The translations under genes were made by a program, and so were the position numbers. Positions 1-40,088 of a DNA stretch of 43,174 bases are shown piece after piece (position 1 is the stretch's first letter; every line of letters begins with the position of its first letter). The notes under the pieces were generated by a model, which was not told where the DNA came from, did no database searches, and worked only from the letters and a program-made list of their open reading frames with translations. Source of the DNA: Jimgerdemannia flammicorona (lineage: Eukaryota); assembly GCA_003990765.1 (NCBI GenBank), contig RBNJ01000080.1, forward strand, positions 1 to 43,174. The letters are read 5' to 3'.

Positions 1-71
1 TTTTTTTTTTTTTTTTTTTTTGAGAATACATTATGATTGGGTGTGCTGACATCATTTTTACATACTTCCAG

Positions 72-2499: not shown

Positions 2500-2540
<41 letters not shown>

Positions 2541-3748
2541 TTTTGATCTAATTCTCATATTATCTGCGATATCGTAGAGGAAACTATGACCATCAATCTT
2601 CCGAATTTGGCGGCATACCTTATTTTCAATCCCAACTTGACCTTGTTCGCGACCCAACCAGCCTTGAGGCGACTGGTATCCATTGCCGTTGACAAAGCTA
2701 TCCGCGAAGTACGCTCTTATACCAAGTTTCGTTTCGTTTGGTGTTGTTGATCTGTTACTCACCTGATATTTACGTAAATTTCGATTCAGATCATTGGCCC
2801 TGTCGTGGAAAGGTCGGTCACCATTGCCGGCCTTTCAACTCGGGATATGATCATCAAGGATTTTGCGATGGAGCCAGACGAGAACAAAATGCGGAAGGCG
2901 GCCCATTTGATGGTCCAGAACCTGGCAGGTTAGCAACCAATGTGACTAACACTTATAAGTTTAGTCGGTTGTGCCCTGTTAGCGCATCGCGTTGAAGAGG
3001 CGAAGCGAATGTTGATAATCAACTCTGAATAAACTTTTTATAGGGAGCTTGGCTATGGTCACCTGCAAGGAACCTCTTCGGCTCAGCATGGTTACACATA
3101 TGCGAAACTTATTTTTGCAAAATGGCTTCACTGAGGTACGTTAAATCTGTACAATCTATTTTGTTCATTATGAGCTAGGGCAATCAATCTTATCATCGCC
3201 ACGGGATTTGTATTCGGTTAAAATAGCAAACGCTGCCAGAACAAGCTATCATGATTGTTGTAAACGAAAATTCCGAGTTGGCTTGCTCCATCATTGAGAA
3301 GGCTGCTATGGAGAAGGCATTGCCAGAGATCGACGAGGCATTAGCTTCTGGTTTCAACAACAGGAAAAAGCATCGCGAAGTATGTGTAGTTTGCGTGTAT
3401 TCTCGATTATTTCATGTTATACTTCACACCCTGCATCTGGTGTTTACTCGTTGCTCCAACTTACCCTTATTTCAATCGACAGCGGACAAATCAACCGTTC
3501 TATGATATGTCTGTCTTCTCGGCCTCGCGGTATCCCTCAAGTCTTCCCGAGCCTTTGCGTTTAAAGCCCAATGGTTTGCAAATGCAACAGGTATGTGGTC
3601 AATCTGTTTCTTTGTATCGATAATGTTGCACGGCATCGCTAAAATTCCTTTGCTATCAGCTCCGTGTCTATGAGGATTTTGCGAGATCTCGCATGCAAAA
3701 CCAACTAACGACATATGGAGCAGGTGAGCATTATGAAATCTGTTACTC

Positions 3749-3795
<47 letters not shown>

Positions 3796-6678
3796 TTGCG
3801 CCACCAAGTTCACCTCCGTATGAATTTCTCATTGTAGAACCCGATCGAGTCCCGAGAGCTACGCGGCCTGAAGTATACCATCCTTCTTATGGGTATGCTG
3901 CTGACGTGTCATACGAAGGGGGCGCTCAAGCACAAGCCGGCGCACATCAAATTCTCGAGAAGTTTGCTGTAAGTTCTTCGATTTAGCTATGTGGGACATG
4001 CTAAACCACATCTTTGAATTTTATCTAATCCGTTATTCTCGTCTTTTTCTAGCAATTTATCGCCGAGCTAGATAAACAAATCAGCCAAACCTCTGCGGGA
4101 TCGTTCAATGTGCTTCCGCAAAATCATGATATCCGCTTGTTGGTCCGCCAGATTCCAGTTTTGGCAAGCCAATCTTTCAACCGCGTTGAAACCGCCATGA
4201 CCCTTGCACAGAAGGTTGTCCAGCTGCTGTATAAGAGCGAATCGAACCTTGCTCGCGAGACATATGTTGCACTCCTTGAACGTTTGTGCGAGACCTCGAA
4301 CAATGTGGCGAAGGAAGTCACCACGTGGCTCGTGTACGCGGACGATGAGGTTCGCTTTTTCAAACTCGGTTCTGTGATTTATGGACTCATTTGTGGTATT
4401 GACTGTCTGTTACACCCATCATAATCTTTAGCGTAAATACAACGTTCCGGTAACGGTGGCATTGATCAGATCCGGTCTCATCAGTCTTGTTGATCAAGAT
4501 ATGCAGCTGGCGAAGTTGATTGAAAACGGGCGTCCAACCGTCATTGATTTCACGACGAAGCTCGTTCGGACTTGTGTCTTGGAGGAACCCTCTTGTGCCA
4601 CTCGCCAGGAATTCATCAACTCGTTGGAGGCATTGAACAGGCTTGCTCAGCGTGCCAAAGCTCCAGAAAGGTATCGCGTCGAAAATCACTCACAAAATAC
4701 CTAAATTTTAGGTTCGACTTATCAACCCTCCCTTCTCTGCTATTTTGTAGCGTCCTTATGCTTCTGGACGATATTAGGCGGGGAGCGCAGAAATCTGCGA
4801 GAGATGCGACAAGAGACGATGAGAATGCTGGATTGCGAGAGCAATTGCAATACCTCTTTACGGAGTGGGTCAGACTTTATCAATACCCGTCATCCAATGA
4901 GAAGGCGTACCTTTCCTTCCTGAATCAAGTAAGCAAGGCGGTAATTTCTTTTCTTTTTTTTTTTTTCAATGCTAATAATTGTTTACTCGATAATGGCACA
5001 GCTTGCACAACAGGGTGTTTTTAAGGGCGATGACATCTCTTCAATGTTTTTCCGCATCTGCACCGAAACCTGTGTGGACCATTTCCTGAAGAACAAGCCA
5101 AGCCCGGGAACCGCGCCGACGGCTAGCTATCAGCCTATCGACGCCTTTTCCAAGCTCGTGGTGTTGTTGGTGAAAATCCAAACGGACCCGACCAATACCA
5201 ATAATAACGCAGCGAAGATCAATCAGCTCAGCAAGATTTTGTCTATCATTGTACTCGTGCTTGCTCAGCAGCATGAGCAGCGCCGCCACCAGTTCAACCA
5301 GAAGCCTTTCTTGCGCTTATTCTCGAGCCTGCTCAACGATTTCAACTCGTATGAACATCACTTCCAGTCCATCTACTTCCAAATCTTGAGTGCGTTGGGC
5401 CACACGTTCCACACGTTGCAGCCATTGTATTTCCCGGGCTTTACCTTCGCTTGGTTGCAGTTGATCTCGCACCGTCTTTTTATGCCGAAACTGTTGCTCG
5501 CTGATCACCAAAAGGTAATTAGCTGCGACAATTTTTTATTTTTATGGGCGCTCGTTGTTCCACTTACAGATCCTTTAATTTACATCTATGATATTCCACA
5601 GGGATGGCCGGTTTTCCAACGCCTGCTGATTTGCCTATTCACATTCCTTGTTCCTTTCTTGCGGAACGTGGAGTTGCGGGAAACGACACGAATGCTATAT
5701 CGCGGTACGCTGCGCGTCCTGCTGGTCCTGCTGCATGACTTTCCCGAGTTCCTTTGCGATTATCATTTCAGTTTCTGCGATGTGATTCCGGCGTCATGCA
5801 TCCAGCTGCGGAATCTCATCTTGAGCGCGTTTCCCCGCAACATGCGTCTCCCTGATCCTTTCACGCCCAACCTCAAGGTCGATCTGCTTCCGGAGATTAA
5901 TCAGTCGCCACGCGTGCTGTCGGACTATAGCGGTGTCCTACTCACCAATAATTTCAAGCAAGACGTTGATGTCTATTTGAAGACGCGAGCACCAGTTCCG
6001 TTCCTGTTGGATCTCCGCAGCAAGCTGTTGCTTGATCCGAATAGTGCTGAGGCTTATAATACGGGCTCCAAGTATAATGTGCCTGTAATCAATGGCTTGG
6101 TACTTTATGTTGGGATCCAGGCCATAGCACAGAGTGCTCCGATAACGCATAGTGCGCCAATGGACATATATCAGCAATTGCTTCTTGATCTGGATTCGGA
6201 AGGTTAGCGTTTGGAAAATACCCTTGAAACATATACACTTTCATATGCTCATCAATTCTCCATTTGGCCATATTTATAGGGCGGTACTTGTTCCTGAGCG
6301 CCATCGCCAACCAATTGCGGTACCCGAATAGTCATACGCACTACTTCAGCTGCGTGCTTCTGTACCTGTTTGCGGAGGGTAACCAGGAGATTATCAAGGA
6401 GCAAGTAACAAGGGTGCTTCTTGAGAGATTGATTGTCAACAGACCTCACCCGTGGGGTCTCCTCATCACCTTCATTGAGCTGATTAAGAATCCACGGTAC
6501 AACTTTTGGAACCACTCGTTCACTCGCTGTGCGACAGATATTGAGAGGCTCTTCGAGAGCGTTTCTAGGTGAGTTTACATTTATTTCCTAATGATTGATA
6601 TATTCGAGTTTGCCCACAAAGTGGCCGGCGTCTCATTTTCAATTATTGTGGTTTGTTAGGTCAATTAATCAAACATAA
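72..6678 (+). CDS. NOT1: CCR4-NOT complex scaffold subunit NOT1 (5'-truncated by the window edge; multi-exon)
   Basis: Exon translations contain NOT1 hallmarks: [137 protein letters not shown]. Introns are GT-AG. The last exon SINQT ends at TAA 6676-6678. Confidence 0.97.
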
Positions 6679-7099: not shown

Positions 7100-8293
7100 C
7101 TACCGCCCTTTGAAATATGGTGCTGCTTTTTCCGCCGCCTTACGGGTCCGTACATCAATATTACGATCTTGCCATGTGCTCTTGCGTAGTTTGATGGGAC
7201 GGTTGCCGACGTACTTGCCTAATAATGAGTTTTGCGGTTTATCCGGAAAACGGCTTATTCATAGTACTACTCGGAGCAAATGATGAACCCTTCGCACTAT
7301 ACACCTCGCCCTGAGTATATCTTTTCTCTTTTATCAGATTTGCACACACACGCACAAGATACTCACCATTCATCTCCCTCCACGCTCTTACAAACTCGTT
7401 CGGGTCCTTGAAACTCACGAAACCATACCCTTTGGACTTGAGAGTCCGCTTGTCTCGGATGACCTTGGCGCGTAATAGCGAAGGGTATTTGGAGAAGGCC
7501 TTCTCGAGTATCTCGTCCGTAACTTCGTTGCCTAGATCTCCGCAGAAGAGGCGGAAGTCGTCTGGTTGTGTGGTACGTGGGGAAAAAAAAAAGGGTTAAA
7601 GTATGCTCGACGTTTACGAATAGACGTTATGCGTGTAACCATGGAGAGATAGCGATACAAGAATATGTAAAATTAAGCTTTACCATCATCCCATTCTAAC
7701 AATGTGTTATCCTCCCACACTTCTCCACCCGCCGCTCGAACCACAACCTTCTGCTTTTTCTTCTTTTTTTCCTTCCCATCCTCATCCTTCTCCCCAATGG
7801 TCACCACATCCACCACAGGCGTTCCTGTCACCGCCGACGTGACCGGGGTATACAATCCCGGCCCTACCGTCGAAGTAGCTGCCGGATACGAGCTGGCGCT
7901 CGTGGTCGCGTTAGTAGTGGACCCTGCCGGTGCGGCGTACCACTGCCCCTCATAAAAGTAGTACTGCCCCGACGGGTCATAGTAGCCACTCGCCGCCGTC
8001 GTAGCGTCGTATCCGACCGCCGCCACCGCCCCCGCTCCCGTCCCGTAGGATGCAGTGTTCTGGGGTTGCCCGGCGCCGTATGCGCTGTAATCATACGCGT
8101 AGCCGCTGGGTGTGCTGGTAGGGTAGTAGGTCTGCTGCTGAGCTAGCGCGGCTGGTCGTGACTGGTAGGGCTGCTGTGGTGGAGCGGCGGCAGAGGGCTG
8201 AGGGCGGAAAGGGCGCATGGGCCCTGTAGGGACGTTGTTTGCTCCTGTGGAGAAGGCGGGGTTGTAGTTGTTGTAGGGCGGGCGATTCGACAT
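7100..8293 (-). CDS. RBM42: RNA-binding protein 42-like (RRM; U4/U6.U5-associated), 3 exons: 8293-7684, 7561-7367, 7218-7100
   Basis: The spliced product has a Y/P/Q-rich N-terminus followed by RAAGGEVWEDNTLLEWD-DDFRLFCGDLGNEVTDEIL...KVIRDKRTLKSKGYGFVSFKDP...REMNGKYVGNRPIKLRKSTW, the RBM42 signature. Splice sites are canonical. Confidence 0.92.
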
Positions 8294-8426: not shown

Positions 8427-10275
8427 ATGTTCCTCTCAACCCACCCTCCGTCCTCGTTGCGCACCTTTCGCCACGCGTGTTCGCTCGTGAGACCTATCAT
8501 CAATGTTCAGCGCCTCCGACCATTTCATCGCTCATTGGCCCGTTTCAATGCCGAGGCGGGACCAAAGAAACCCTACTCGGAGCGCCTCAAGAACGCCTGG
8601 AACGCCACACAGGTCAAATGGTATCCCATACCTGTCGGCCTTGGCATCGCATTTATTGGCTTTCAACATTCCCGACATATCCGAAAACGAGAATGGCAGC
8701 GGTTGCGAGAGGAGGCAGAGGCGCAAGCGGAAGCGCAAGGTCGGCCACGTGTCGTGGTTGAGGGTCCCTGGCAGGTATGTCCTTGCTACTGCGATTGCTG
8801 CCAATGAGAAAAAACATAATTTGAACTCGTCATTTTTGTCAAAACAGGTTCGCGTCGCCGCGGCTCTTCCACTCCGCTCCTTATCGCGGCTATGGGGCTG
8901 GTTCAACAATCTCAACATCCCTAGACCGCTTCGCATCCCTGGATTCAAACTATACAGCTTTCTGTTCGGCTGCAACCTCGAGGAGATGAAGAACCCGGAT
9001 CTGAGGACTTATTCGAATCTTTCCGAATTCTTTTACCGAGAGCTGAAGGATGGTGCGAGGCCAATCGAAAATTCACCCTTGGTACGCCTTGAATCTGTCG
9101 ACGGTTAAGTATGGCATCGCCATCCAAATGTCTGTCAAAAATTTTACCGCGTTTCTGTCGTTACTTTGCAGGTGTCTCCATCCGACGGCAAAATCCTCCA
9201 CTTTGGCGTCGTCGAGGGCCGCAACATCGAGCAGATAAAGGGAAAAACTTACTCCCTTGACGCTTTGATCGGTGGAAAGTCGGCAGGAAACACCACTGAC
9301 ATTCTTGCCTCGAGCCAATCGGCCAACATCGTCAACGAGGAGAAATTTGCCAACATCAATGATATCCCTTACTCGCTCGACACCCTACTTGGCAGCGATC
9401 CGGCCGCGGGGGTCAAGGCTGAGAGCATCGTTGGGCCTGATGGAACCGTGCGGACCAAGGGCAAGCTCGCGGCGGATACGACGGGCAACGCACGGGCTAT
9501 TTTGAAGAGGACGGATTTGGAACCGGAGGTTCGCGATCACCATCGTCCCGCTGAGGGGCATGGCTTGTTCTTTTGCGTAATCTATCTCGCGCCTGGCGAT
9601 TATCATCGGTTTCATTCGCCTACGAACTGGGTGGTCGAGGCAAGGCGTCACTTCGCCGGTGAGTTTAACAAAGATGTCGAGCTGCATGGTATACAATATT
9701 GTCGCTAGACAATGACAGAAACCTGCGCTTCACCCATTTGCATGTAGGTGAACTTTTTTCGGTGTCGCCATACATGGTGAAGCTGCTCGAGAACCTGTTT
9801 GTCCTTAACGAACGCGTGGTACTGAACGGCCGGTGGCAGTACGGTATCTTCTCCATGATCCCTGTCGGCGCCACCAACGTCGGGTCGATCAAGATCAACT
9901 TTGATGAGGTCAGTTCCTCACTAGATACTGAGATCGAAACAAACTGGTCACGAAACTAACATTGATGTATACCATTCCTTCTCATTGCACACACACACAC
10001 ACTCTCTCTCTCTCTCTCTCTCCCCATCTATCACATAGGCTCTCAAAACCAACCGGAGGGAAGACCTCCCTGGAGGTACGTACACCGAAGTCTCGTACCG
10101 ATCGGCGGACCCATTCGTCGGTGGGAAACAACTCGTGCCGGGCGAGGAGATGGGCGGGTTTTGCCTAGGCTCGACGGTCGTGCTGGTGTTCGAGGCGCCG
10201 CTGGGCTTTAGGTTCGGGGTTCAGGCGGGGCAAAAGGTGCGCATGGGTCAGGCGCTGGGCGAAATGACGGCATAG
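8427..10275 (+). CDS. PSD1: Mitochondrial phosphatidylserine decarboxylase proenzyme (multi-exon)
   Basis: Arg/Ser-rich presequence, [11 protein letters not shown] anchor, [67 protein letters not shown] and the autocleavage motif [16 protein letters not shown]. Stop TAG at 10273-10275. Confidence 0.96.
9988..10022. repeat. (CA)n(CT)n compound microsatellite in a PSD1 intron
   Basis: cacacacacacacactctctctctctctctctctc read directly. Confidence 0.85.
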
Positions 10276-11790: not shown

Positions 11791-12119
11791 CAGCACGATA
11801 AGGTGAAGAAACTCGCGGAGGGGGGTTTTTTTTTGTTTAAAAAAAATCGCAGACAAACTCGGAAAATAGCTGGACAAAGGAATTCGAATGTCTACATACT
11901 TACAATCCATCTCAAACGGTTTCTATTCTTTTTTCGCCCCTATATATAGCAATCCAGAATACGGAATGGTTCCTCCAATCTGTATTTTATTTTACTTTAC
12001 TATGTATACTTGATTTTTTATGTATTCGTAGTTTTGTACTCTATTTCGCACCCTGGAATTGGTGGATTTGATGTACCACGATGAATTGGGAACTATTTCC
12101 TTCGTAAGTATATATTATA

Positions 12120-13898
12120 CTATGCCGGCACGAAATTCAGTTCCTCCTGCCTACTTGAGGCAAAATTCATCAATAATAAAATACTTTTGAATAAAAAATA
12201 AACTGTTTAAAATACACTTAAATAAATAGTTGGTACAACATTTCTGAGCACAAGCATAAGTTGTGCCAACTAAGCAACCCTAAATCATGTCCTTGCAAAA
12301 TTGCACGTCCTTCATGCCTTCACGAAATTGCCATGTCCTCACCTGTCTTAGAAGTATACATCCTATCATGAAATCACCACATCCCATCTTAGCACGTCCT
12401 GTGAAATTTGTACTGAAACTACTCATCCTACTATTGGTCAATACATCAATCGTCTACTAAGCAACTTACTCAAGATTACAGATACCTGCTATCAATAAAT
12501 TATGCATTAGAACCCCAACTCAATCTTGTCATAGTGGATGACTCAGTATCTTCACTGGATCTCAATATATTATTAAAATTAATTGTTTACAATAATTTGT
12601 AAAATTAAAAATTATAATATTTATTATTATTATATTATATATTGTATATTGTATAATAATAATAGTTATTTATTATCAAATAAATTGATTATTAATATTT
12701 TATATAATATAGTATATCTAAGATAGCTCTATATATTTAATTAAATTTATATCAGAAGACTTAATAAACTAAAATTCTAGCTAATTGATAATAAGTTCTT
12801 TAAGTTTCTAATAAACTACTTTGATATTATATATATATGTATTATTCTATTATTAAATATAATTATCATAATAAATAAAATTATAATATAAAGTAATCTA
12901 TAGAAGAACTTTTTTATATATTATTAGTAAGATATATTTAACTAATAATATAAGTATTTATTTAAAAAATAAACTCTTATAATATTAGAAAATTTAACTA
13001 AAAACTGTAATACTATCATTACTATCTTCAATTTATAATTAAAGTTAAATATGCTAAATTATAATTTATTTTAAAAAAATAATCTAAATAAATTTAACAA
13101 TACTTATAGTATATCATTTTGTATCAGACTAATGATAGTATTTAGATTGTCTATAATAAGTAATAAGTAATATTTAAATCTAAGAGTAATGACTTATAAA
13201 TAGTAATTCAAGAGTAATAACTAAGAGCTTCAATTTTATATTTAATTGTTTTATAGTAAAGTAGTAGTAATCCAGTATCTATTAATAGTTGTGAAAATTC
13301 AATATAATATTTAAAGCTAAAAATAAAAATATAATAATATATAATATATAATATATAATATAATTTTTAATCTTATCAATTATTGTGAACAATTGATTCT
13401 AATATTATATGTTGAGGTCCAGTTAAGGTACTGAGTCATCTACCACAATGGAGTTCCAAATTGCAATTAATTGACAGCAGATGTAATATGAATATTGTAA
13501 GTTGCTTAGTGTTTCTATGCACCAAGCAACTAGTAATAGGGTGAGGGGTAGTTTCAGCAGTAGACATTTTTTGAATGATGAAATAATAATTCGAAAACAG
13601 TCTATTTATTCTGTACAGATTTCGACAGCATACTTCTAAGACAGGACGTGGTGATTTCGCGACAGCATATTTCATGAATACCTTCCTGTGCAATTTCACG
13701 AGGACTCGAAGTCATGAAGACGTGAGGACGTGCAATTTTTGCAGTACTATGTGGCACAAGTTATGCTTGTACTCAGAAATGTTGTACCATTATTTATTTA
13801 AGTGTATTTTAAACGGTTATTTTTTATTCAAAAGTATTTTATTATTGATGAATTTTGCCTCAAGTAGGCAGGTGCAACCGAATTTCGCGCCGGCAGAG
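12120..13898. mobile_element. Non-autonomous or decayed DNA transposon with long terminal inverted repeats, flanked by TA (Tc1/mariner-type target or foldback-like)
   Basis: 12120-~12268 is a near-perfect reverse complement of ~13752-13898 (ctatgccggcacgaaattc.../...gaatttcgcgccggcagag). Patchy inverted similarity continues inward to ~12650/~13330 (e.g. gatgactcagtatcttcactgga vs tccagttaaggtactgagtcatc). TA on both flanks (12118-19, 13899-900). The core is extremely AT-rich with no readable ORF. Confidence 0.88.
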
Positions 13899-13989
13899 TA
13901 GTATAATTATAATAAGCCGTCCGCATGACGCAATAAGTCGTAAGTCTTCGTTCCACGCAGACGCGTTCTTGCCAAATTCTCCCCCAAAT

Positions 13990-16643
13990 ATGTCTGCCAG
14001 CTTGTCCGTGCCTGAATCTGTGCCCAACGACAGCGACGATGATGTTATCGAGCTTCCTCGCTCTGGGGAACAAACCCCTCTCCTAAAGGACAGTGTAACT
14101 GGATACCGCAGCGCTTTCCCCTGTACGAACTCCCATTTCCACTCCTTCAAAGTTAAAAAAAAAAATGGGATCCGTCTGATCCAACCCCAATCCATACTCT
14201 ACTCCCCCTGCTAAACCCAGTGCCTTCAGCCCGTGTCTACGACAGCCCACCCAAGGACAAGCTGCAAACGTTCTGGACCCGCACCAAGTACTATGTCCCC
14301 GTGCTACAGTGGCTGCCCGCCTACGAGATGCGGTTGCTTTTGGGCGATGTCATCGCTGGCCTGACCCTCTCATGCCTACTGATCCCTCAGGCCTTGTCGT
14401 ACGCGACCGCGCTCTGTAAGCTTCCAGCCATACACGGGCTGTATGCCATTGCATTTCCAGCGACTACCTATGCTTTGTTCGGGACGTCGCGGTAATACGC
14501 CCACCAAATATTTCCCCCCTTTGATCCTGTGGAACGAGAGCAGTTCTCTTGAATGTCGATTGTTTTTTTTTTTTTCTTCAATCTCTGTGACGTTAATACG
14601 CGGTTTCATATACCTCCCCAGACAACTCTCCATGGGCCCCGAAGCAACACTTTCGATGCTCGTTGGCTCCGCCATCGCCCAGATAACCCACTCATCCTCC
14701 AGCGAGCTGGATCCCCTGGCTCTTGCTTGCCTTATGACCCTCTTCGTCGGCGTCTTCACCTTCCTTTTAGGCCTCTTCCGACTGGGCTTTCTGGATTCCC
14801 TCATGTCGCGTGCCCTCCTCCGCGGTTTCATCACGGCCGTCGCCATCGTCGTCATGGTCCAGCAGAGCATCACCCTTCTCGGCCTCGTCGAGACTAGCAT
14901 CGATGCCGGCATCAATGAGGCCTCCTCCACCATTGATCGCGCCATCTTCCTCATCCAGCACTTCCACCTCGCCCACCCTCTCACATCCGTCGTCTCCGCC
15001 GTTGCGTGTTCGTTCCTCTTCAGCTTCCGCCTTCTCAAAAGCAGATTCCCCAACGCTGCCACGCTACAAATTACACCCGAGGTCTTGCTCGTCGTCGTCT
15101 TGGCCACAACACTCACGGGTATCTTTCGCTGGGATAAACTCGATCTGAAGATCCTCGGCGACGTCAAGAGCGGCGGGATCCCCTGGCCATCCATCCCGAG
15201 GATGCCCAAGGTTAAGGTCGTCAAGGATATTGCATTCACGTCCGCGCTCATCTCCATTTTGGGTTTCGTCCAATCAATCGTTATCTCCAAGACGTACTCG
15301 TCAAAACATAATTATTCCGTCAGCCCCAATCGCGAGCTGATTGCTATGGGCGTCGCGAACATTATAGGCGGCCTGTTCCAGGCTATTCCCGCCTTCGGAT
15401 CGGTACGTACTCTTCAATTTTTCATCCTTGCCTGACGCCACCGCCTTATCATGCCGTTCGTTTTTCATCTGACCCTCCACCTATATCTCTCCAAACTTCT
15501 GCAGGTGGCTCGTAGCAAGATCAATGACCGCGCGGGCGCTCGAACGCAGCTGGCTGGCTTCATAGCCGGGGTGGTTTCCCTGCTCGCCATCTTCTTCCTT
15601 CTTCCCTACTTCTATTACTTGCCCAAAGCCGTGCTTTCGTCCATCATCTTTGTCGCCGTGCTCTCGCTGCTCGCCGAGGCGCCCGAGGACATCGAGTTCA
15701 TGTTCCGCATTCATGCATGGCGGGATTTCACCCTCCTGTGCATCATTTTCCTCGCCACCGTCTGCGTGTCGCTCGAGATGGGGACGTTGCTCGCTGTGTC
15801 ACTGTCGCTGCTGCTTACGGTGAAGGAGACGAGCTATCCTAGGATCACGATTATGGTAAAGGGGAGAATTTGGGTTAAAATGGGGTGGAAAATAAGGCTG
15901 AGCTTAAATATTGGATGGACTCGTAAATTGGTCATTGAACCCCGTTTTATTTCGCCGGGATCGCACTTGGCAGGGCCGCGTGAAAGGCACTACCAACAAG
16001 TTCAAACCAATACGTGATGCCCCCGAAGGTATGGTCGAGCACGTTGAGGACACGCTTATTGTCCGCGTTGAGGAGCCGCTCTTTTTTGCCAACACTGGTA
16101 AGTACCGCCTTGGAGTATTTCATGTTGTGGTAAATCACGAGACGCTGAGGCTGGTCTAATCTTTGTTTCTGGGTCTTTCTGCCTTCCCCGTACGGCCTCT
16201 CGCGCAGGCCAGCTCAAGGACCGTCTGCGCCGTCTGGAGCAGTTTGGCGACATGTCGGTGCACCCGAGCGAGGAGCCTAGGTTCGGCGCTATCTCGAACG
16301 TCATCTTTGACGTCGAGCTGATGCTCGAGATCGATGCCAGGTAGGTTGTGGATTATTGCTATGTGTTTTCCTCTTTTATTTCGTTCCGTTCCTCTTTGCC
16401 TTACCAAGCAACAATGATTTTTCTTCCGCAAACGACAGCGCGATTCAAATCCTCATTGAAATTGTCGAGGCCTACCACGCGCGCCACGTGCAGGTATTCT
16501 TCGTCAAGGTGCACGAGGAGGCGCGCGAATTGTTCCAGCTCTCGGGGCTGATCGAAAAGGTTGGCACTGACCACGTCATCAAGCGCGTATCCACGGCGAT
16601 TGACTACATCGAGAACCATACGGAAAGATACAATACTGTTTAA
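13990..16643 (+). CDS. SulP/SLC26 family sulfate/anion transporter with C-terminal STAS domain (multi-exon)
   Basis: YYVPVLQWLPAY, GDVIAGLTLSCLLIPQALSYA, YALFGTSRQLSMGPEA, LGLFRLGFLDSLMSRALLRGFITA, PNRELIAMGVANI, RSKINDRAGARTQLAG, IVRVEEPLFFANTGQLKDRLRRLE and VIFDVELMLEIDASAIQIL (STAS). N-terminal acidic dileucine-like EQTPLL suggests vacuolar/endomembrane targeting. Confidence 0.93.
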
Positions 16644-16790
16644 GCGGGTTGCTAAGCGGGAGAGGATGACACCAGGGGATGATGCGCAACTGTATTTATC
16701 GCCATTGCTTTTTGTTCGTCTGTCTCTTTTCAAAGTACTGCGGTCGAAAAATAAAACAAGTAGATATTCGTTGGATTCTCATACATGCCA

Positions 16791-16826
<36 letters not shown>

Positions 16827-16869
16827 GGAGACGTCCATATTGGCCACGAATCGTATGCCGCGGAATAAT

Positions 16870-19800
16870 CTACACCGCCCCCAACATATTACGTATCTCC
16901 TTGACAATTTCCTCGTGGGATATTGGCGCAGCTTTACCGCTTCGGCCGGACTGCCTTTTCTTTTCATCTATTTTGTCTTCGATCGCTCTAGTCTTCACTT
17001 TTGCCAGCACTTTCTTGTCCTTCCCACCGTCTTCTTTTTCGTTTTCGTCACCTTCGTCTGAGCTCGTCTCCGTCTCCTCCACACTTCCTCCACCACCGGC
17101 TTCAGTCTCCTCCTTCACACCCACCACATCACCGCCCTCCTCATTCACTGCCTCACCAATCCCAACAACCTCCATCCCCATCCCCACCACCTCCCTGGGC
17201 ACTCTACCCTCTAAATCCGGTACGCCGATATCACACTTTCCCTCCCGTACCAGAATTTTCACCACTTCTCTCCTACCTCCCCATGCCGCCCACCACACCG
17301 CCGTGTGTCCCATCCGATCCCGCGCGTTTACGTACGCCGCGTCCGGCGGCATGGGCTTCGAAGCGCGCGCTGCGACCGCGGGTGGCTTCCCCGAACGACG
17401 CACGTACGCTTTGGGCGGCGGCGGCGGCGGCGGGATGGATGCGTGGACGAGTGCGCGCACCAGGTCGGCGGCGGTGGTCGATGGAAAATTCGGGTCCTTG
17501 CACGCGACGATCAACGGCGTCTCGCCTTGGTTATTGACCGTGTTCCATAACGGGAGCGGCAATGCATCTGACCCCAAAGAATCCTCGTTACGGGCACTCA
17601 CCTCCGCTATCCTTGTCTCCCCCGCCACCAACACTGCTCTCACCACCTCCACCTCCCCGCTCACGACCGCCATCTCCATAATCCCACTCTTGTTCGCTGG
17701 CTCCCTCGCCCACAAATCAATCGCGTCCGCGTATTGCAGTAGCGTCCGCACGCACTCGAGATGTCCTCCCCTCGCCGCGACCATCAGGGGCGTAAACCCG
17801 GCAGCGTTGGGCGCGTTAACGAGCTGTCTGAGCGAGTACGGTCTCGCTTCCCGGTAATGCTCCAACATGAGCGCAAGTACGTCGTCGTGTCCATGTGCCG
17901 CGGCCAAGAACGCACACGTCTCTCCCCGAAACGACTTCGCCGTCACGTCGACCCGGCCGTCGCCGTAAGCCTTCAAAATATGGTGCGCGAATTCGACCCG
18001 TCCGTACCGGCACGCGACTAGTAGAGGTGTCATGCCGTTCACGCCGTCGGGCTCGTCGAGGCGCCATCCTGTCGCGACGCAGCGGTCGACCAGCCCTGGG
18101 AGGTCGTAGCCGTAGTAGGCCGCGAGCCAGAGCGGGGTCTCGTTGCGCGAGTTGTGTAGGACGGGGGGCATGGGTTGGGGTCGTTGCGGCCTGTCGTCCG
18201 CCATGTCAGACGCCTTATCTGCAGGTGATTCTCGTCCTTGCTTCGCCGCGAACTGCTGGATCCATTCCTGGCGGCCCTGCTCCGCGGCGTCGAGCATGCG
18301 ACGGTGAAAGCCCTCTGCACCGTCGACCCGAGTGATGCCGATGCAGGAGAAAGAGGTGTCGCGCGTGCCGCAAATGACGGCGCCGAGGGCGTGGCGCGTC
18401 ATGGAGAAGACGACAGGGGTCGAGGCCTTGTGGCAGGCGGTGAGGATTGAAAGCGTCATGTAATCCAGGCCGGCTGGTTGAGTGGGCAAGGAGAGGGTAA
18501 GAAGGTTTGGTGGGTGTTGGCTGTTGTTTACCAGGAGCAATGAGAACGCAAATGGATATGACAATGATCGGGGGAAACCGTACTGCCTTCTTCCGTCGTT
18601 TGTTCAATGTTCCGTGCCATGATGACGCACTTGATTCGGCCCCGCTTCACGTGTTTTAGCACTTCACGAAGGCCCATGTACATCCTTCGCTTGGATTTGG
18701 CCTTTATGTTGAGAAAAACGAGATGGACATCAGCACATCAATCCTCCAAAACCCGCAACCTATGGCCGGGTTTGAGTGAAGATCGACTGTCACGGTCAAT
18801 CTTGCTCGTTCCTCCTCAGTATGTGTTCGTATAAAAGTACACGCAACTCACTTTAGTTGCATTGATGTTCAACTGCCGCTTCTGAAACCTCATAATCTCC
18901 CCTAGAAAGTCTCGCACAATTTTGTCGAGCTCCTCCGTGCATATCTGGGTGCAGTAGCTGGTAATAAAAGAATGATGTCGTCACGACATTAACAATAAAT
19001 CTTTTCGAGGACTCGTCTTCCCACACAAACCCGAATCTCACCATCTGGCCTCCCCTCGATCCCGTATGAATCGTGGCCTCTCAAGCGCGATGCGAACAGC
19101 GTGCGACTGCGGATCTGAGATCTTCTTTGAACGGCGTTTCTTGGAGGCCTGACGGCCCTGCGGTTGGGGCGTTGTCTCGGCTATGGGTGGGTTGTTGGAA
19201 TTGGAAAGTGAGACGACAGACTGCTGTTGCACCGGCGTATGTTTTGGGGGCACGATGGTGGTGGGATCGACATAGGACGGTAACGGTGACAGATGGAGGA
19301 TGGAGGCGAAAGTTCTAGCGAGGCCGGGCGAAGGGGCTGCGCGGGAGTCGAGATTGAGATCGTGAGAGGGTGACGAAATACTTGTTATTTGTGGGGATAT
19401 GGTAATTTTTGATCGTTCCGAGCCCTCTTTTGTCACCACCAAGGCCATTTCTTCATTGCCGTTTCCGCTTTCTTCGACATGATCGTCTTCCGAATCTTCC
19501 CCGTTCACCTCAGTCTTCACCAATTCCTCTACCTGAACCACCTGTTCCTCCTGCCCTGCCATGCTCGCTTTACCGACTTCCTCCGATTTCCCTCCCCCTC
19601 TTTCATCTTTAAACGCCTCATCCGCTTCCTTCCTCTTCTCAAACACGGCCTTTTTCATCTTCGTTGTCTTCTTCTTCTTGGGCGTCAGTCGTTGGATCCC
19701 GCGATACTTAACCGAAGGAGCCGACCCGTCGACCGTGTTGGTTTGCGTCAATTGCAGCTTGTCCGGGTTTGTTACGAAAGGTGCTCCGTGGGACCAGTCG

Positions 19801-20159
19801 GGCTTTGGATTCGTTTGCGAACGGGGTACGCGAGGTCGTTTGTCAGGGTTGTGTTGTCGCGTGACGTCTTGATACGGTCGTGACGCCGGGGCAGAGGCAG
19901 AAGACCGCCGTTGTACAGGATCTGTTGCGGCATTCTCTATTTTCTGTTATTTTAGTAAATTGCAGGTTATCGCTTCTATTCATGTATTGTAATGGATCTG
20001 GCGCCGCATGAATAAGCATACTTCTAGCTGGTCACCGATCAGATCAGCAAGGGACATGGGAGCGACCTTCCATTTCTTTTTGGGTTGGGCGGTAGCGAAA
20101 GCTGGCGTGGTTCCAAAGGTTTGATGTGCGAATGAGGGGTTGTTTCGTCTGTCGGCCAT
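16870..20159 (-). CDS. SBP2: SECIS-binding protein 2 (SBP2/SECISBP2) homolog fused to C-terminal ankyrin repeats, about 955 aa; exons 20159-20022, 19943-19042, 18957-18852, 18701-18584, 18473-16870
   Basis: Exons total 2868 nt and stay in frame. K-rich SID-like motif NTVDGSAPSVKYRGIQRLTPKKKKTTKMKKAVFEKRKE. Spliced L7Ae region RCYCTQICTEELDKIVRDFLGEIMRFQKRQLNINATK|AKSKRRMYMGLREVLKHVKRGRIKCVIMARNIEQTTEEG|TGLDYMTLSILTACHKASTPVVFSMTRHALG...SCIGITRVDGAEGFHRRMLDAAEQGRQEW matches my recollection of human SBP2 (RDYCSQ...ELVRFQDR...KAKTKRRLVLGLREVLKHLKLKKLKCVIISPNCE...GGLDD...PFVFALNRKALG...SVVGIFSYDGA). The same last exon then carries ankyrin repeats (ETPLWLAA, GMTPLLVAC, GETCAFLAA, GFTPLMVAARGGHLECVRTLL, GETPLIVAC, GHTAVWWAA). 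Confidence 0.9.
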
Positions 20160-20348
20160 TTGCAGAAGAGAGTAGTATGTCTACAAGCCACCCATTTTTT
20201 TCTATTATCTCAATCCCATGGCATACTCAACCCTCTTTAACTCCATGGCATACCAGACCCAACCACCTCCGATTGGGTTCAATCTACGGGCATTGGGGTG
20301 TATATATGTATTCGTATGTATAGATGACACAGTTGTGTATCAAAGAAT

Positions 20349-20349
<1 letters not shown>

Positions 20350-20400
<51 letters not shown>
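20350..20400 (+). repeat. About 50-nt poly(dA) tract in the divergent SBP2-BUB2 intergenic region
   Basis: Uninterrupted A run read directly. Confidence 0.9.
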
Positions 20401-20401
<1 letters not shown>

Positions 20402-20790
20402 GTAGATGCTTTCCCTTTGTGAATCAGCCAACTGTAGCTAATAATTGTCTGAGATATAACTGAGATATATACATTAAAGCAATCTAGTGGCAGGAGTATG
20501 TGGATATTGGACATAAGAGATTGCAATGTCAAACGCACAAAGGAGTATTGCATGACACCTAACAAAGGATTAGAGCGCGACACTAAAAAGCAAAGCAGCA
20601 TTGCGCCAAACGAACAAAAGGAGCGGAGAGAAAGAAAAGATCACATGAATAGCCACAAGGAAATATTATGTACGCATTGGCCCATCAATAGAAAATAGGG
20701 GACATTTACCATTACCCTTGAGCGGGTCTCGGGGTTGAAGTCGCCCTTCGTTGTGCTTGCTTCTTGCTCCGACTTCATGTCACATCGCAA

Positions 20791-22108
20791 ATGGCCGCTC
20801 AGATGACTTCAGTAAAGACTAGGCGGGCAGAGCTGCGCAGAGAGACGATCGAAAATATTCTAAGTACCCCACACAGTTCAGAGGAAGATGTTGCAACAAG
20901 CTTAGCGGAAATACGCAGGATTGTCGCCATCGAGGGGCTGCCCGTCGTAAGCAATTAGAAGCGAATTCCACCGAGCTCGTCGTATCAATACTTTCTAACA
21001 TCATTTTATCTCCCATATACCCATCTGCTCCGCTATGATCTCAACTCAAAAGCCAAATACTTCCGAGTTCTCTCCAGTCCGTCCGGCCCCCATCCGGCCC
21101 CGGGACCTCCAACATCGGCTCGTACATTATGACCGCCAACGCCTTCGTTCACAGGTTTGGAAGGTGTTTCTGGGTGTCTATCACGTCTCTGCTACCGAGT
21201 ATACGTGCTTGGTTAAGAAGGGTCCGTCCGATGTCTACGACAAGGTGCGCAACGATACATTCCGTACATTGGCGACGGATCAGGGATTTTCCATGGAGGT
21301 ACAGGAAGACATGCTGATAAGGGTGCTGAATGCGTTCGCGTGGAAGGCAAAAGGTAATTGGCGTTCTCTGGTTTGGCTGCGGTCAATTTTAAGTACTAGT
21401 TGAATAATATTGTCTTTACCTGAATTCCAGGCGATTTAGCAACCTCTCCCCCTCCGACAGGTCATGACCCTCTGGAGTTTACCTACGTGCAAGGCATGAA
21501 TGTCCTTGCTGCACCATTTCTGTACGCCATGCCGGAAGTGGAGGCGTTTTTTGCCTTCTCAACCCTGATTCAGTACTGCTGCCCGATGTACGTCCAGCCA
21601 TGCTTGCAGGGTGCGCATTGCGGATTGAAGGTAAGAGTGGATCTACATTCTGGCACATAATCTTGCAATTTTCCTCTTTCGCATGTCCTGTACGTCCTGC
21701 CAACTCGCGCGCGTTCTTGCAGTTGTTGGACATGTGTCTTCAGGTTGTAGATCCAGAGCTGTTCGGGTACCTGCGCGGCAAGAGCCTAACGGCAGAATTA
21801 TATGCGTTTCCATGTAAGCTACGTTGCAATTTCTTTCACCGACATTAGCATAACTTTAAGACCATATTTTGTACTCAAATGATATATCTGCTAAGTTTAT
21901 TCCCAAAAAGACTCACTGCTTGCTATTGTAAACTTGAAAATGCTCGATTAGGTGTTTTGACTTTCTCTGCGTGCACACCACCTCTGGATCAAGTACTGGA
22001 ACTTTGGGATTTCCTTTTTGCGTTTGGGATGCATCTCAATGTATTGTGCATTGTCGCACAATTATTAATGATTCGAATCGATCTTTTGCAAAGTCCAAGG
22101 TTGGGGTC

Positions 22109-32139: not shown

Positions 32140-33534
32140 TTATTGCCGGTCCAACGACATCCTTGTCACGTCATCGTTGGATGTAACCAAAGGTTTCACC
32201 GTGCTGAGCGCGCATACCTTTTGGAAATCACACCCAACCTTACTGGATACCAACTTCCTGAATGTCTCCCATGGACAAGCGTGCGCATCCTTAGCAGATT
32301 CGCCACCAACGCATCCAGGGATCGCGACGGGCCTCTCGTTGATCATCATGCGGATTTTGTACCCGGCGTTCGAGCAGTTCAACACCTCAAATACCATATT
32401 CGCAGCGAACGGCACGATCTGGCTGGTCCTGTACTTACGATTGCAGATGAACTGCGCGGTGGCATTCGCCAGCAACGGTTGGTCGTCGTGGCTGATGTTC
32501 AGAAGCGTGGCGAGGAACTTGATGGTTTCGGCGTGACCGAACTTGAATGTCCCGTGCTTGGCGGCGGGATTATTGGAGATCAGGGCTTCGATGTCGGTGA
32601 CGAGGTTGGTGACGAGATCGCACGCTAGGAATTCGTTAAGTGGGTTGCCGTACGAGAAGCTGAAGTACTCATCCATGTCCTCGATGTACTCGAGTGCTTC
32701 AACTTCCGGAGGTTGTAGGAGAGTGCACCAGGTCGAGGTGCTGCCCTTGAAGGAGGCTTCGTACCCGCAGAGGCTGTAAATGTCGGATATGTGCTCCGGT
32801 TGAAGGTCTAGGTTGGGAAATTGTGCGTTGAGGCGCTGTGCGATAGCAGGGAGGTGTAAGGATGCGAAGGCGTCTATCTGCGCGTCGCGGAAGGGGTTGA
32901 TACGTCCTTCCTTGAGCCATTTAGGGCAGGCGTGCTTCATGGCCAGCTGGCGATCGATACCCTTGGGGATGGTGTAGAGGAAAATGGGTTGAATCCTGGA
33001 GTATCCCAACGGTCCATCTCCCTCAAAGAGCCCAATGGAGAAGGCAGATCCCGATTGAGAAGAGCGGCTGGTATCTGACGCACGAAATTCAAAGATGTTG
33101 GCGTTGTAGGTGGAGTTGCGGAAGAAGCTGTTGTATCGGGCGGCGAGGCGCTTGCCGAGGAAATACAAATCCTTGTCGCCGGCGAGGGCAAGAAGGTTTG
33201 ATTTGAGAGGGTCGTACTGGTTGACCCAGGTACGGAGCCAACGGTGTTGATGGTCGATTTTAGCGTCGGAGAAGAGAGCGTAGAGATCAATGAAGCGTTT
33301 GGATTCTTTGTTGCTCGGGTAGCGGGTGCCATGGCGGGCGAGGACATGGATCTGGGCGAGCTTGCACGTGGCGTGGAGGACGATTGGGGACGAGATCCTG
33401 TTGGAAATTGGGTATGGGCCTTTGCTACCGAGATGATCCAAGATGTTAAAGGGGTTTGAATGGAATTCAGGGGCGGCATGGCAAGCCTGAAGGGCGAGGG
33501 AGAGCAGGAGGAGGGTACCGACAATGCTGGGCAT
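32140..33534 (-). CDS. Secreted histidine acid phosphatase/phytase (MINPP1-like), intronless, 464 aa
   Basis: Signal peptide MPSIVGTLLLLSLALQACHA, catalytic RHGTRYP, proton-donor motif FGHAET, RTSQIVPFAANMVFEV. Confidence 0.93.
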   Translation of the reverse strand: MPSIVGTLLLLSLALQACHAAPEFHSNPFNILDHLGSKGPYPISNRISSPIVLHATCKLAQIHVLARHGTRYPSNKESKRFIDLYALFSDAKIDHQHRWLRTWVNQYDPLKSNLLALAGDKDLYFLGKRLAARYNSFFRNSTYNANIFEFRASDTSRSSQSGSAFSIGLFEGDGPLGYSRIQPIFLYTIPKGIDRQLAMKHACPKWLKEGRINPFRDAQIDAFASLHLPAIAQRLNAQFPNLDLQPEHISDIYSLCGYEASFKGSTSTWCTLLQPPEVEALEYIEDMDEYFSFSYGNPLNEFLACDLVTNLVTDIEALISNNPAAKHGTFKFGHAETIKFLATLLNISHDDQPLLANATAQFICNRKYRTSQIVPFAANMVFEVLNCSNAGYKIRMMINERPVAIPGCVGGESAKDAHACPWETFRKLVSSKVGCDFQKVCALSTVKPLVTSNDDVTRMSLDRQ

Positions 33535-33926
33535 GGCAATGTGAATATGTGTATGTGTATGGCGCGAAGGCTGCGCTTTATAGAACTTAAGACCTGGAGG
33601 TCTCGGAATGTAAAGTGTCAACCTTGAATAATCTCACGTCCCTATTCACGTGTAGACCAAGCCACCGCAACGTGAAATGTTTCAATAACCCATGCAAAGT
33701 CTATCTGACCTTTGTGCAACAACGGAAGCTTAGACTAGGAGTATCCCTGGACTAAAAAAGAGCGTAGTATGCATCTCTATTATCCTACCCCGCGGGACAT
33801 GAAATAGACCGTTCTGTGCGCTATGCCTTTATCTTATCACCCGCCAAGCCACATCCAGTCACAATCTTTTTGTTTTGCTCACACCGACTGACACTCTCCA
33901 TCTGAAACACCTCGCTATCTTGCGCA

Positions 33927-40000: not shown

Positions 40001-40088
40001 CTTCAATAATCTGTTTTATCTGCTCTATATTAGTAAGCATTCTATACTCTAGTATAACTAATATCTCATTCTGAAATTTGACTTATTA

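Follow-up and report, generated by a model that had tools for sequence, protein, structure and literature searches.

An SBP2 gene with C-terminal ankyrin repeats in Jimgerdemannia flammicorona and its relatives in early-diverging fungi

The window analyzed here is a stretch of 43,174 nucleotides (nt) of DNA from the fungus Jimgerdemannia flammicorona (Endogonales, Mucoromycota). On its minus strand, at positions 20159-16870, is a gene that almost certainly encodes SBP2, the factor on which the reading of UGA codons as selenocysteine (Sec) depends, fused to ankyrin repeats. The gene consists of five exons (138 + 902 + 106 + 118 + 1604 = 2868 nt), which translate into 955 codons and a stop with 0 internal stops. 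The four introns are 78, 84, 150 and 110 nt long and every one has GT..AG ends. An in-frame stop is present immediately 5′ of the ATG at 20159 (stop-to-stop frame 19980-20180). Exons, introns and protein segments are listed in Table 1.

Contigs of two public sequencing runs from two studies (termed X1 and X2) were aligned to the locus; the run type is unrecorded and is presumed to be RNA. These contigs display intron-less joints for all four introns (18473>18584, 18700>18851, 18957>19042 and 19943>20022), with CT..AC ends on the plus strand. A single contig of 1259 nt spans exons 1-4, and a single contig of 1594 nt spans positions 16883-18473, i.e. nearly all of exon 5. At the joint between exons 4 and 5 the contig sides are short (30 and 19 nt). 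A previous inspection of this DNA by a model that made no database searches (here termed the sequence-only reading) had proposed five exons that splice in phase into a 955-aa protein. The exons are found exactly where it had placed them, and contigs presumed to be RNA bridge all four introns. It had also put the C-terminal half of the L7Ae domain and the ankyrin repeats in one stop-free exon, and exon 5 is indeed uninterrupted, with one contig covering 16883-18473. The same contig runs unbroken across nearly all of exon 5, which speaks against transcripts that end before the ankyrin repeats, an outcome that the earlier inspection had allowed for.

Low-depth contigs that retain an intron are also present, at 18444-18613 (intron 4, depth 12.4) and at 18679-18840 (intron 3, depth 2.4), compared with a depth of ~64. 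Retention of the 110-nt intron 4 would break the reading frame. Long A/T homopolymer runs flank the gene at 16784-16834 and 20339-20409, and these were skipped as repeats in the contig alignment.

The translated exons were compared one at a time with the sequences of solved structures by phmmer. Exon 3 shows a match to human SBP2 at aa positions 632-660 (E-value = 0.031), and no other L7Ae-type chain was matched. Exon 4 matches positions 667-703 of human SBP2 with an E-value of 2.4e-7; the next chains are those of eL30, from E-value = 0.24, and then L7Ae and Snu13 (0.24-1.3). The start of exon 5 matches human SBP2 at positions 711-774 (E-value = 0.15), and this is its sole L7Ae-type match. In Pfam, exon 4 corresponds to positions 10-45 of PF01248 (L7Ae), with an E-value of 5.6e-8. 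Exon 2 alone gave no match in a phmmer search against the PDB. The Sec-incorporation domain (SID) within exon 2 aligns by pairwise BLASTP with positions 450-507 of SBP2 from Arapaima (E-value = 1e-5) and, with 45% identity, with positions 551-587 of SBP2L from Branchiostoma (E-value = 3e-5). The lysine-rich (K-rich) motif of the human protein, at residues 527-540, is described in one study as crucial for binding of the 60S subunit (PMC4114684).

An alignment of 40 SBP2 relatives has 11 columns, other than Met columns, that are conserved at 90% or more. The window protein retains 11 out of 11 of these near-invariant residues: Y348, F371, R374, K382, A383, R388, G392, E395, E415, L451 and G473. 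The first three, Y348, F371 and R374, belong to the helix encoded by exon 3. The ...SLADL... sequence of exon 1 is common to the Endogone and Thamnocephalis proteins; by eye, and unscored, it resembles the ‘LSAD’ motif mentioned in an SBP2L study (PMC2746813).

An ortholog of 917 aa (P0002) is found in Endogone sp. FLAS-F59071. It is 48% identical to the window protein overall and carries both PF01248 and ankyrin repeats. The identity is 76% in the RNA-binding domain (RBD), 67% in the SID, 59% in the ankyrin region and 36-42% in the remainder. The Endogone sequence matches human SBP2 at positions 628-778 (7zjw_B) with an E-value of 1.6e-29 and, more weakly, its positions 119-162 match human positions 505-547. 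An AlphaFold model of the Endogone protein has a mean predicted local distance difference test score (pLDDT) of 69.6 and a predicted template modelling score (pTM) of 0.64; pLDDT falls below 50 for 325 of its 917 residues. The modelled RBD overlays 7zjx_B with a root-mean-square deviation of 2.1 Å over 147 columns (~39% identity), and the remainder of the model matches ankyrins and designed ankyrin repeat proteins (DARPins) in a Foldseek search.

The 175-residue RBD of the Endogone protein was also used for a phmmer search of 1.84 billion representative sequences. This yielded 1168 matches with an E-value of 0.001 or less; the best 150 were considered, and names were looked up for 30 of these. 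All of the named matches that bear a functional name are SBP2 or SBP2L. These results bear on whether the L7Ae domain could be that of a different family branch, such as Snu13, Nhp2, eL30, eL8 or Gadd45, which would agree with Pfam naming the general family PF01248 only. The probability of this is negligible. The E-value of exon 4 with SBP2 is 2.4e-7 against 0.24-1.3 for the best eL30, Snu13 and L7Ae chains, both the SBP2-only helix and the SID are present, and the functional names among the matches point to SBP2 or SBP2L without exception. The earlier assignment of the domain to the SBP2 type is therefore upheld by exon 4, the exon 3 helix, the SID and the 11 conserved columns, and a grouping with Snu13, Nhp2, L30 or Gadd45 is ruled out by exons 3, 4 and 5 each having SBP2 as the best L7Ae-type match.

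The C-terminal part of the protein is an ankyrin module. Exon 5 matches five ankyrin families in Pfam, among them Ank_2 (E-value = 1.1e-34; 119.3 bits, cut-off 27.3) and Ank (E-value = 2.8e-26; 90.5 bits, cut-off 21.1). Pfam thus finds PF01248 together with ankyrin families on the translated exons, as had been predicted for the spliced protein. An AlphaFold model of the exon 5 product (pLDDT 72.8, pTM 0.67, nine sequences in the alignment) displays helix pairs at residues 113-133, 149-169, 186-218, 228-245, 264-295, 319-344 and 391-410 in the numbering of that product. About seven repeats at ~18145-17190 had been estimated from the DNA, and seven are modelled, at 18150-17161. The poly-Pro insert and the acidic/basic tail noted at the same time are both found, and in the model they are poorly ordered or disordered. 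An insert occurs at the equivalent place in all aligned fungal proteins. The C-terminal helix has an equivalent at positions 891-916 of the Endogone model, and a similar C-terminal stretch is present in Endogone, Gonapodya sp. JEL0774 and Smittium.

The top database match to the window protein, P0001, is a J. flammicorona sequence of 530 aa with 99% identity. It is named ‘ankyrin repeat-containing domain protein’, and its first residue is an internal Met of exon 5 that lies midway through the L7Ae domain. Since it starts within the L7Ae half-domain, P0001 is a truncated gene model. Where P0001 starts and how it is named, together with the short contig sides at the exon 4/5 joint (30 and 19 nt), might be taken to mean that an SBP2-like gene and a neighboring ankyrin gene have been wrongly joined. 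This is very improbable. Intron 4 divides the L7Ae domain itself, and the second half of the domain is in the stop-free exon that contains the repeats. P0001 opens with that half-domain, as a truncated model would, the contig at 16883-18473 is unbroken, and the same order of L7Ae and ankyrin is found in seven further fungal species.

The window sequence differs from P0001 by A672V, R831W and one additional Pro (positions 17723, 17247 and the poly-Pro run near 17410-17430), and A672V and R831W are also seen in run X1. The window therefore comes from a different isolate or assembly than P0001. In Bifiguratus adelaidae the corresponding public model (P0024, OZJ04102.1) has a chain length of 1458 aa, with an EFR3 domain at positions 11-355 ahead of the SBP2-ankyrin part; it probably represents two genes fused by the gene caller. 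Public annotation thus conceals the gene, as an ‘ankyrin repeat protein’ in J. flammicorona and as part of a merger with EFR3 in Bifiguratus. Two fungal SBP2 sequences already carry the automatic name ‘SECIS-binding protein 2-like’ (SECIS, selenocysteine insertion sequence).

To determine the spread of the fusion, the best 150 matches were searched with local phmmer using the window and Endogone ankyrin regions as queries; an ankyrin region resembling these is present in 5 of the 150. Pfam was run on 20 of the 150, picked for having ~200 or more residues after the RBD. Six of these display L7Ae with ankyrin repeats, comprising the five found by phmmer and a sixth, weaker case, and 14 display L7Ae without them. 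All six are fungal: Bifiguratus adelaidae, Gonapodya prolifera, Gonapodya sp. JEL0774, Thamnocephalis sphaerospora, Syncephalis fuscata and Smittium megazygosporum. The Syncephalis fuscata sequence is a fragment, and in Smittium megazygosporum the repeat region is degenerate and much expanded. Endogone is an additional fungus with this architecture. A further fungal match, in Quaeritorhiza, stops at the end of the RBD, and its architecture is undeterminable from the sequence.

The looked-up matches without ankyrin repeats are from fish, reptiles, amphioxus, arthropods, Diphylleia and Chlorokybus, and most are annotated as SBP2 or SBP2L. No L7Ae-ankyrin protein was found among the non-fungal SBP2 sequences checked; the absence of ankyrin from the animal matches checked agrees with what the sequence-only reading had stated of animal SBP2 and SBP2L. 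The best 150 matches contain no SBP2-ankyrin look-alikes from the heavily sequenced fungal groups that do not use Sec, and Mucorales, Mortierella and Dikarya are absent from the 30 names. One of the 14 proteins without ankyrin, P0079 (462 aa), has an SBP2-type L7Ae domain at positions 49-143 followed by a Herpes_UL52/UL70 primase-like domain at 286-347 (E-value = 3.2e-11).

The L7Ae-ankyrin architecture is a shared form of fungal SBP2 in three phyla, including published Sec users, and is not specific to this locus. The earlier inspection had suggested a search across fungi, naming Bifiguratus, Gonapodya and Harpellales; the architecture is found in Bifiguratus, in two Gonapodya species and, in degenerate form, in Smittium, and also in Thamnocephalis, Syncephalis and Endogone. 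Its suggestion that the architecture was new stands in part. No description of an SBP2-ankyrin protein was found in the literature searched; the final journal version and the supplements of the fungal Sec study may mention it. A literature search for Sec or selenoproteins in Jimgerdemannia, Endogone, Thamnocephalis, Syncephalis and Quaeritorhiza gave genome lists and reviews only. The fusion is not special to this locus, and what is new is a fungal family.

Alignment shows that the ankyrin modules of eight fungi are collinear. The modules have in common a first repeat directly after the RBD (...TPLWLAAYYGY...), a last repeat (...TA.WWAA...), the insert before the last repeat and a cap (...VVG.G...). 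A maximum-likelihood tree of the RBD was made from 57 rows, comprising 15 labelled rows, every third of 123 unlabelled near-full-domain rows and the unnamed fragment P0141, with 81 other rows omitted. The nine fungal rows and P0141 form a clade with a support of 100/99. Within the same tree the window, Endogone and Bifiguratus sequences group together (98/94). A quick tree of 77 rows is concordant, the fungi adjoining the branch that holds all named animal sequences. In an approximately unbiased (AU) test, a clade of the nine named fungal rows that excludes P0141 is neither rejected (p = 0.264) nor shown. The fungal groupings in the RBD trees lie where the species phylogeny would place them and are what is expected from vertical descent after a single early fusion.

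The relationship to known SBP2 proteins is close in the core. Human and rat SBP2 (PDB 7ZJW/7ZJX, on the ribosome) resemble the fungal protein in that the SID/K-rich region is followed by the SBP2-specific helix and then by the L7Ae core, and the human protein has collinear matches at 505-547 (via Endogone) and at 632-774. In animal SBP2 the RBD is followed by a short tail, without ankyrin repeats, whereas the fungal protein adds a solenoid of ~330 residues, the Pro-rich insert, the acidic tail and the terminal helix. The fungal protein in turn lacks the long N-terminal extension of vertebrate SBP2. Animal SBP2L has the same SID and RBD core as the window protein, and amphioxus SBP2L is the best SID match; SBP2L (P0030) has no ankyrin repeats. 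According to its description, SBP2L is a paralog of animal origin and is absent from organisms without selenoproteins (PMC2746813), whereas the fungal clade lies outside the branch of all named animals. Thus the SBP2 core is ordinary, and the ankyrin addition is not known from animal SBP2 or SBP2L.

The SBP2 proteins of Bifiguratus, Gonapodya prolifera and Harpellales are orthologs of the window protein, with one RBD clade, the same L7Ae-ankyrin order and collinear modules; Smittium SBP2 is unlike the window protein in its degenerate and much expanded ankyrin region. In a preprint on fungal Sec use, fungal SBP2 is called highly divergent, and the word ‘ankyrin’ occurs 0 times in the accessible part of its text (10.1101/314781). 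A green-algal SBP2 (P0023), with a PF12874 zinc finger and PF01248, is another example of a lineage-specific addition to the SBP2 core. The algal zinc fingers are N-terminal to the RBD and are of a nucleic-acid-binding type, whereas fungi have gained a protein-binding solenoid on the C-terminal side. Accessory domains on SBP2 may therefore be a recurring theme.

A two-chain complex prediction was made with the Endogone RBD (positions 305-470) and its ankyrin region (478-805), without alignments and with three controls. The RBD-ankyrin pair gives a score of 0.63, compared with 0.00 for the best control; the three runs share at least 84% of their contacts, and the pLDDT of the partner is at least 84. 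In a calibration that is mostly microbial, 51 of 78 solved complexes and 2 of 108 mismatched pairs attained the mark for this score; a pass supports binding and falls short of showing it. The predicted ankyrin interface is formed by the groove loops of repeats 3-7 (Endogone positions 554-555, 596-599, 629-635, 679-683, 692-695, 751-752 and 785-786). On the RBD side it includes positions 311-315 (start of the family-specific helix), 393-406 (helix 3 and the following loop) and 443-461 (the long C-terminal helix). No solved complex of SBP2 with ankyrin repeats is present among the structure matches of the Endogone sequence and model, so the prediction does not reproduce one that was already solved.

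The GLREV and NIE motifs, whose residues we take to be kink-turn contacts in L7Ae proteins, have no residue in the named interface, in which a residue that is not named counts as uncertain. If these residues contact RNA, their position means that the RNA surface would stay free. The net charge of the ankyrin region is between -4 and +4 in seven of eight fungi, and that of the RBD is +5 to +10; a near-neutral ankyrin region beside a basic RBD argues against a second RNA-binding surface. The pTM of 0.64 for the whole Endogone chain, a third of whose residues are disordered, would fit a fixed arrangement of the domains. Ankyrin-B and ankyrin-R (PDB 4RLV, 5Y4D, 5Y4E), where the groove is filled by the protein's own polypeptide, count among the top matches to the fold of the solenoid. 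In those proteins a disordered autoinhibition segment lies in a groove of 24 repeats, whereas in fungal SBP2 a folded RBD is predicted to lie on 7 repeats; this is a mechanistic likeness and not membership. According to the prediction, the ankyrin groove would clasp the RBD of its own chain as an intramolecular clamp, and we regard the chances of this as about evenly balanced.

The following mechanism is proposed. By analogy with animal SBP2, the L7Ae domain and the K-rich region would bind the kink-turn of the SECIS in selenoprotein mRNAs and also the large ribosomal subunit, and this binding would let eEFSec deliver the Sec-tRNA to UGA. In the model, the concave groove of ankyrin repeats 3-7 would clasp the RBD on the side made up of its N-terminal extension, its helix 3 and its long C-terminal helix. 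The RBD and the ankyrin module would then form one rigid body, with the outer ankyrin face, the insert, the acidic tail and the terminal helix free for other contacts, and the clamp may fix or orient the RBD on the ribosome-SECIS complex. The ankyrin fusion would have arisen once, near the base of Fungi. The clamp may accompany the unusual and mostly unrecognizable SECIS elements of fungal selenoprotein genes.

Sec use in fungi was reportedly first described in 2018-2019. Sec use has been published for Bifiguratus, Gonapodya prolifera and Harpellales (Mariotti et al., bioRxiv 10.1101/314781), and a review counts nine Sec-using fungal species, seven of them Harpellales. The same preprint reports a recognizable SECIS in 5 of 16 fungal selenoprotein genes and suspects a divergent SBP2 as the cause (10.1101/314781). 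Among the 30 named of the best 150 matches, SBP2-ankyrin proteins are found only in patchy, early-diverging lineages, so that retention of the gene appears to parallel the Sec trait. On this model, Endogonales are predicted to be Sec users still. Taken as a whole, the statement that J. flammicorona has SBP2 in the form usual for early-diverging fungi, with a Sec-recoding role, the clamp and a single origin, is one that we consider fairly probable.

Several observations weigh against this statement. No tRNA genes and no Rfam families (SECIS included, at the gathering score) were found within the window. The run type of the contigs that support the gene structure is only presumed to be RNA. Thirty of the best 150 matches are named, and an ankyrin-less fungal SBP2 or an ankyrin-bearing non-fungal SBP2 may rank lower among the 1168. 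Strain differences are without sign of purifying selection: the ratios of non-synonymous to synonymous changes are 9/8 (X2) and 3/4 (X1) among those listed, 27 more exist, and the counts are too few and too mixed to reveal selection. Two of the strain changes fall in the C-terminal helix of the RBD. The clamp comes from one predictor, to which two halves of a single chain were given with no alignments, and from the Endogone ortholog rather than the window protein; the interface as listed is also compatible with the RNA-contacting residues being covered.

Two other readings of the protein have to be considered. The ankyrin module may be a free docking platform whose open groove brings an outside partner into the recoding complex; such a partner might be eEFSec, a ribosomal protein or some regulator. 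Ankyrin repeats generally bind other proteins through the groove, and a near-neutral module suits the binding of protein over that of RNA. The ankyrin region is also the second-best conserved folded part of the protein, and in J. flammicorona a flexible linker of 29 residues lies between it and the RBD. Against such a platform, in the complex model the loops that line the groove in repeats 3-7 contact the RBD of the same protein (0.63 vs. 0.00), and the pTM of the whole Endogone chain (0.64) fits a fixed arrangement. We consider the platform rather unlikely. The idea of free docking had been put forward from the DNA sequence; in the model the groove is instead seated on the RBD. The other reading is that Endogonales have lost Sec and that a repurposed SBP2 has taken on a different task, in which it binds the ribosome or other kink-turn RNAs. 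In agreement with this, the Sec-using fungi named in the accessible texts of the preprint (five species, 10.1101/314781) and the review (nine species) do not include Jimgerdemannia, Endogone, Thamnocephalis or Syncephalis, and the pattern of single-nucleotide polymorphisms is without clear constraint. What speaks against a repurposed protein is that the SID, the K-rich motif and 11 out of 11 near-invariant columns have been kept, and that outside Endogonales the protein is most closely related to the SBP2 of Bifiguratus, for which Sec use has been published. In addition, no SBP2-ankyrin look-alike from heavily sequenced Sec-free fungi is among the best 150 of the 1168 matches, and intron-less, i.e. 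spliced, contigs of the gene are present in two runs. Repurposing is unlikely, somewhat more so than the platform.

A wider proposal builds on the clamped, Sec-recoding form of SBP2 and is offered tentatively, as possible though doubtful. Fungi would have a distinct Sec-recoding complex, with a seven-repeat clamp that was fused before chytrids, zoopagomycetes and mucoromycetes diverged and that enables recognition of the non-canonical SECIS, which present-day tools fail to detect in 11 of 16 fungal selenoprotein genes. Sec use would then extend, unrecognized, to Endogonales, Zoopagales (Thamnocephalis, Syncephalis) and Quaeritorhiza, beyond the nine species reported.

To our knowledge, the accessory parts of SBP2 are poorly understood even in animals. 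A conserved folded domain in the SBP2 of three fungal phyla, with a predicted clasp on the RBD, provides a concrete object for the supposition that a divergent SBP2 underlies the missing SECIS, and the ankyrin clamp is an obvious candidate for the cause of the unrecognized fungal SECIS. The gene may also serve as a marker, since its presence in Endogonales, Zoopagales and Quaeritorhiza flags these lineages for a selenoprotein search.

Table 1. Features of the SBP2-ankyrin gene, its protein segments and the neighboring genes (positions in the window)
Feature	Position	Strand	Remarks
Exon 1	20022..20159	-	138 nt, 46 codons; start codon 20157-20159; basic N-terminal stretch, then ...SLADL... motif
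Intron 1	19944..20021	-	78 nt, GT..AG; joint in run X1 only, side 133
Exon 2	19042..19943	-	902 nt; mainly low-complexity Ser/Pro/Lys/Glu-rich, includes SID; no Pfam family; covered by contigs from both runs
SID, K-rich motif	19596..19769	-	exon 2 residues 59-116, protein ~105-162
Intron 2	18958..19041	-	84 nt, GT..AG; joint in both runs, sides 107 and 105
Exon 3	18852..18957	-	106 nt; SBP2-specific helix ahead of L7Ae core (YC.Q...RFQ.R)
Intron 3	18702..18851	-	150 nt, GT..AG; joint in both runs
Exon 4	18584..18701	-	118 nt; first half of L7Ae core with GLREV and NIE motifs
Intron 4	18474..18583	-	110 nt, GT..AG; joint in X1 (1 contig, side 30) and X2 (2 contigs, side 19)
Exon 5	16870..18473	-	1604 nt; second half of L7Ae through ankyrin repeats to stop, one open frame
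Second half of L7Ae core and long C-terminal RBD helix	18238..18473	-	strands/helices in AlphaFold model, exon 5 product residues 1-78
Linker	18151..18237	-	~29 residues; pLDDT <50 at exon 5 product 79-103; longer than Endogone linker
Seven ankyrin repeats and short cap	17161..18150	-	pLDDT 87-97; Pfam; 59% identical to Endogone
Pro-rich basic insert between repeats 6 and 7	17341..17439	-	poly-Pro run ~17410-17430; pLDDT 51-58
Acidic, then mixed-charge disordered tail	16930..17163	-	pLDDT <50 at exon 5 product 437-514; net charge -8
Conserved C-terminal amphipathic helix and stop codon (16870-16872)	16870..16917	-	helix 519-532, block pLDDT 92 and 84
CNOT1 (CCR4-NOT subunit 1)	24-6569	+	many exons; HEAT, TTP-binding, CAF1-binding, ARM, Not1 domains in order
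RRM protein	~7242-7595	-	neighbor
Phosphatidylserine decarboxylase	~9109-9705	+	neighbor
SulP sulfate permease	~14157-16014	+	PF00916 in three consecutive open reading frame pieces (14157-16640); convergent with SBP2 gene
RabGAP-TBC protein	~20999-21400	+	neighbor
Histidine acid phosphatase	32143-33633	-	neighbor

The neighboring genes are ordinary fungal genes and have no bearing on the SBP2-ankyrin finding. Sulfate permeases also transport selenate; a functional link between the sulfate permease and SBP2 was considered and rejected, as the permease is a convergent neighbor only and there is no evidence of a link. AT-rich blocks are present at 12001-14000 (GC content 0.27) and at 38001-42000 (0.24-0.30), compared with ~0.45-0.55 elsewhere in the window; these fit the description of the Jimgerdemannia genome as repeat-rich (PMC10386755). 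A stop-free frame of 395 aa, antisense to the ankyrin exon at 16670-17857 on the plus strand, displays a low-complexity sequence rich in Pro and Ser, and most likely just reflects the GC-rich coding strand on the other side.

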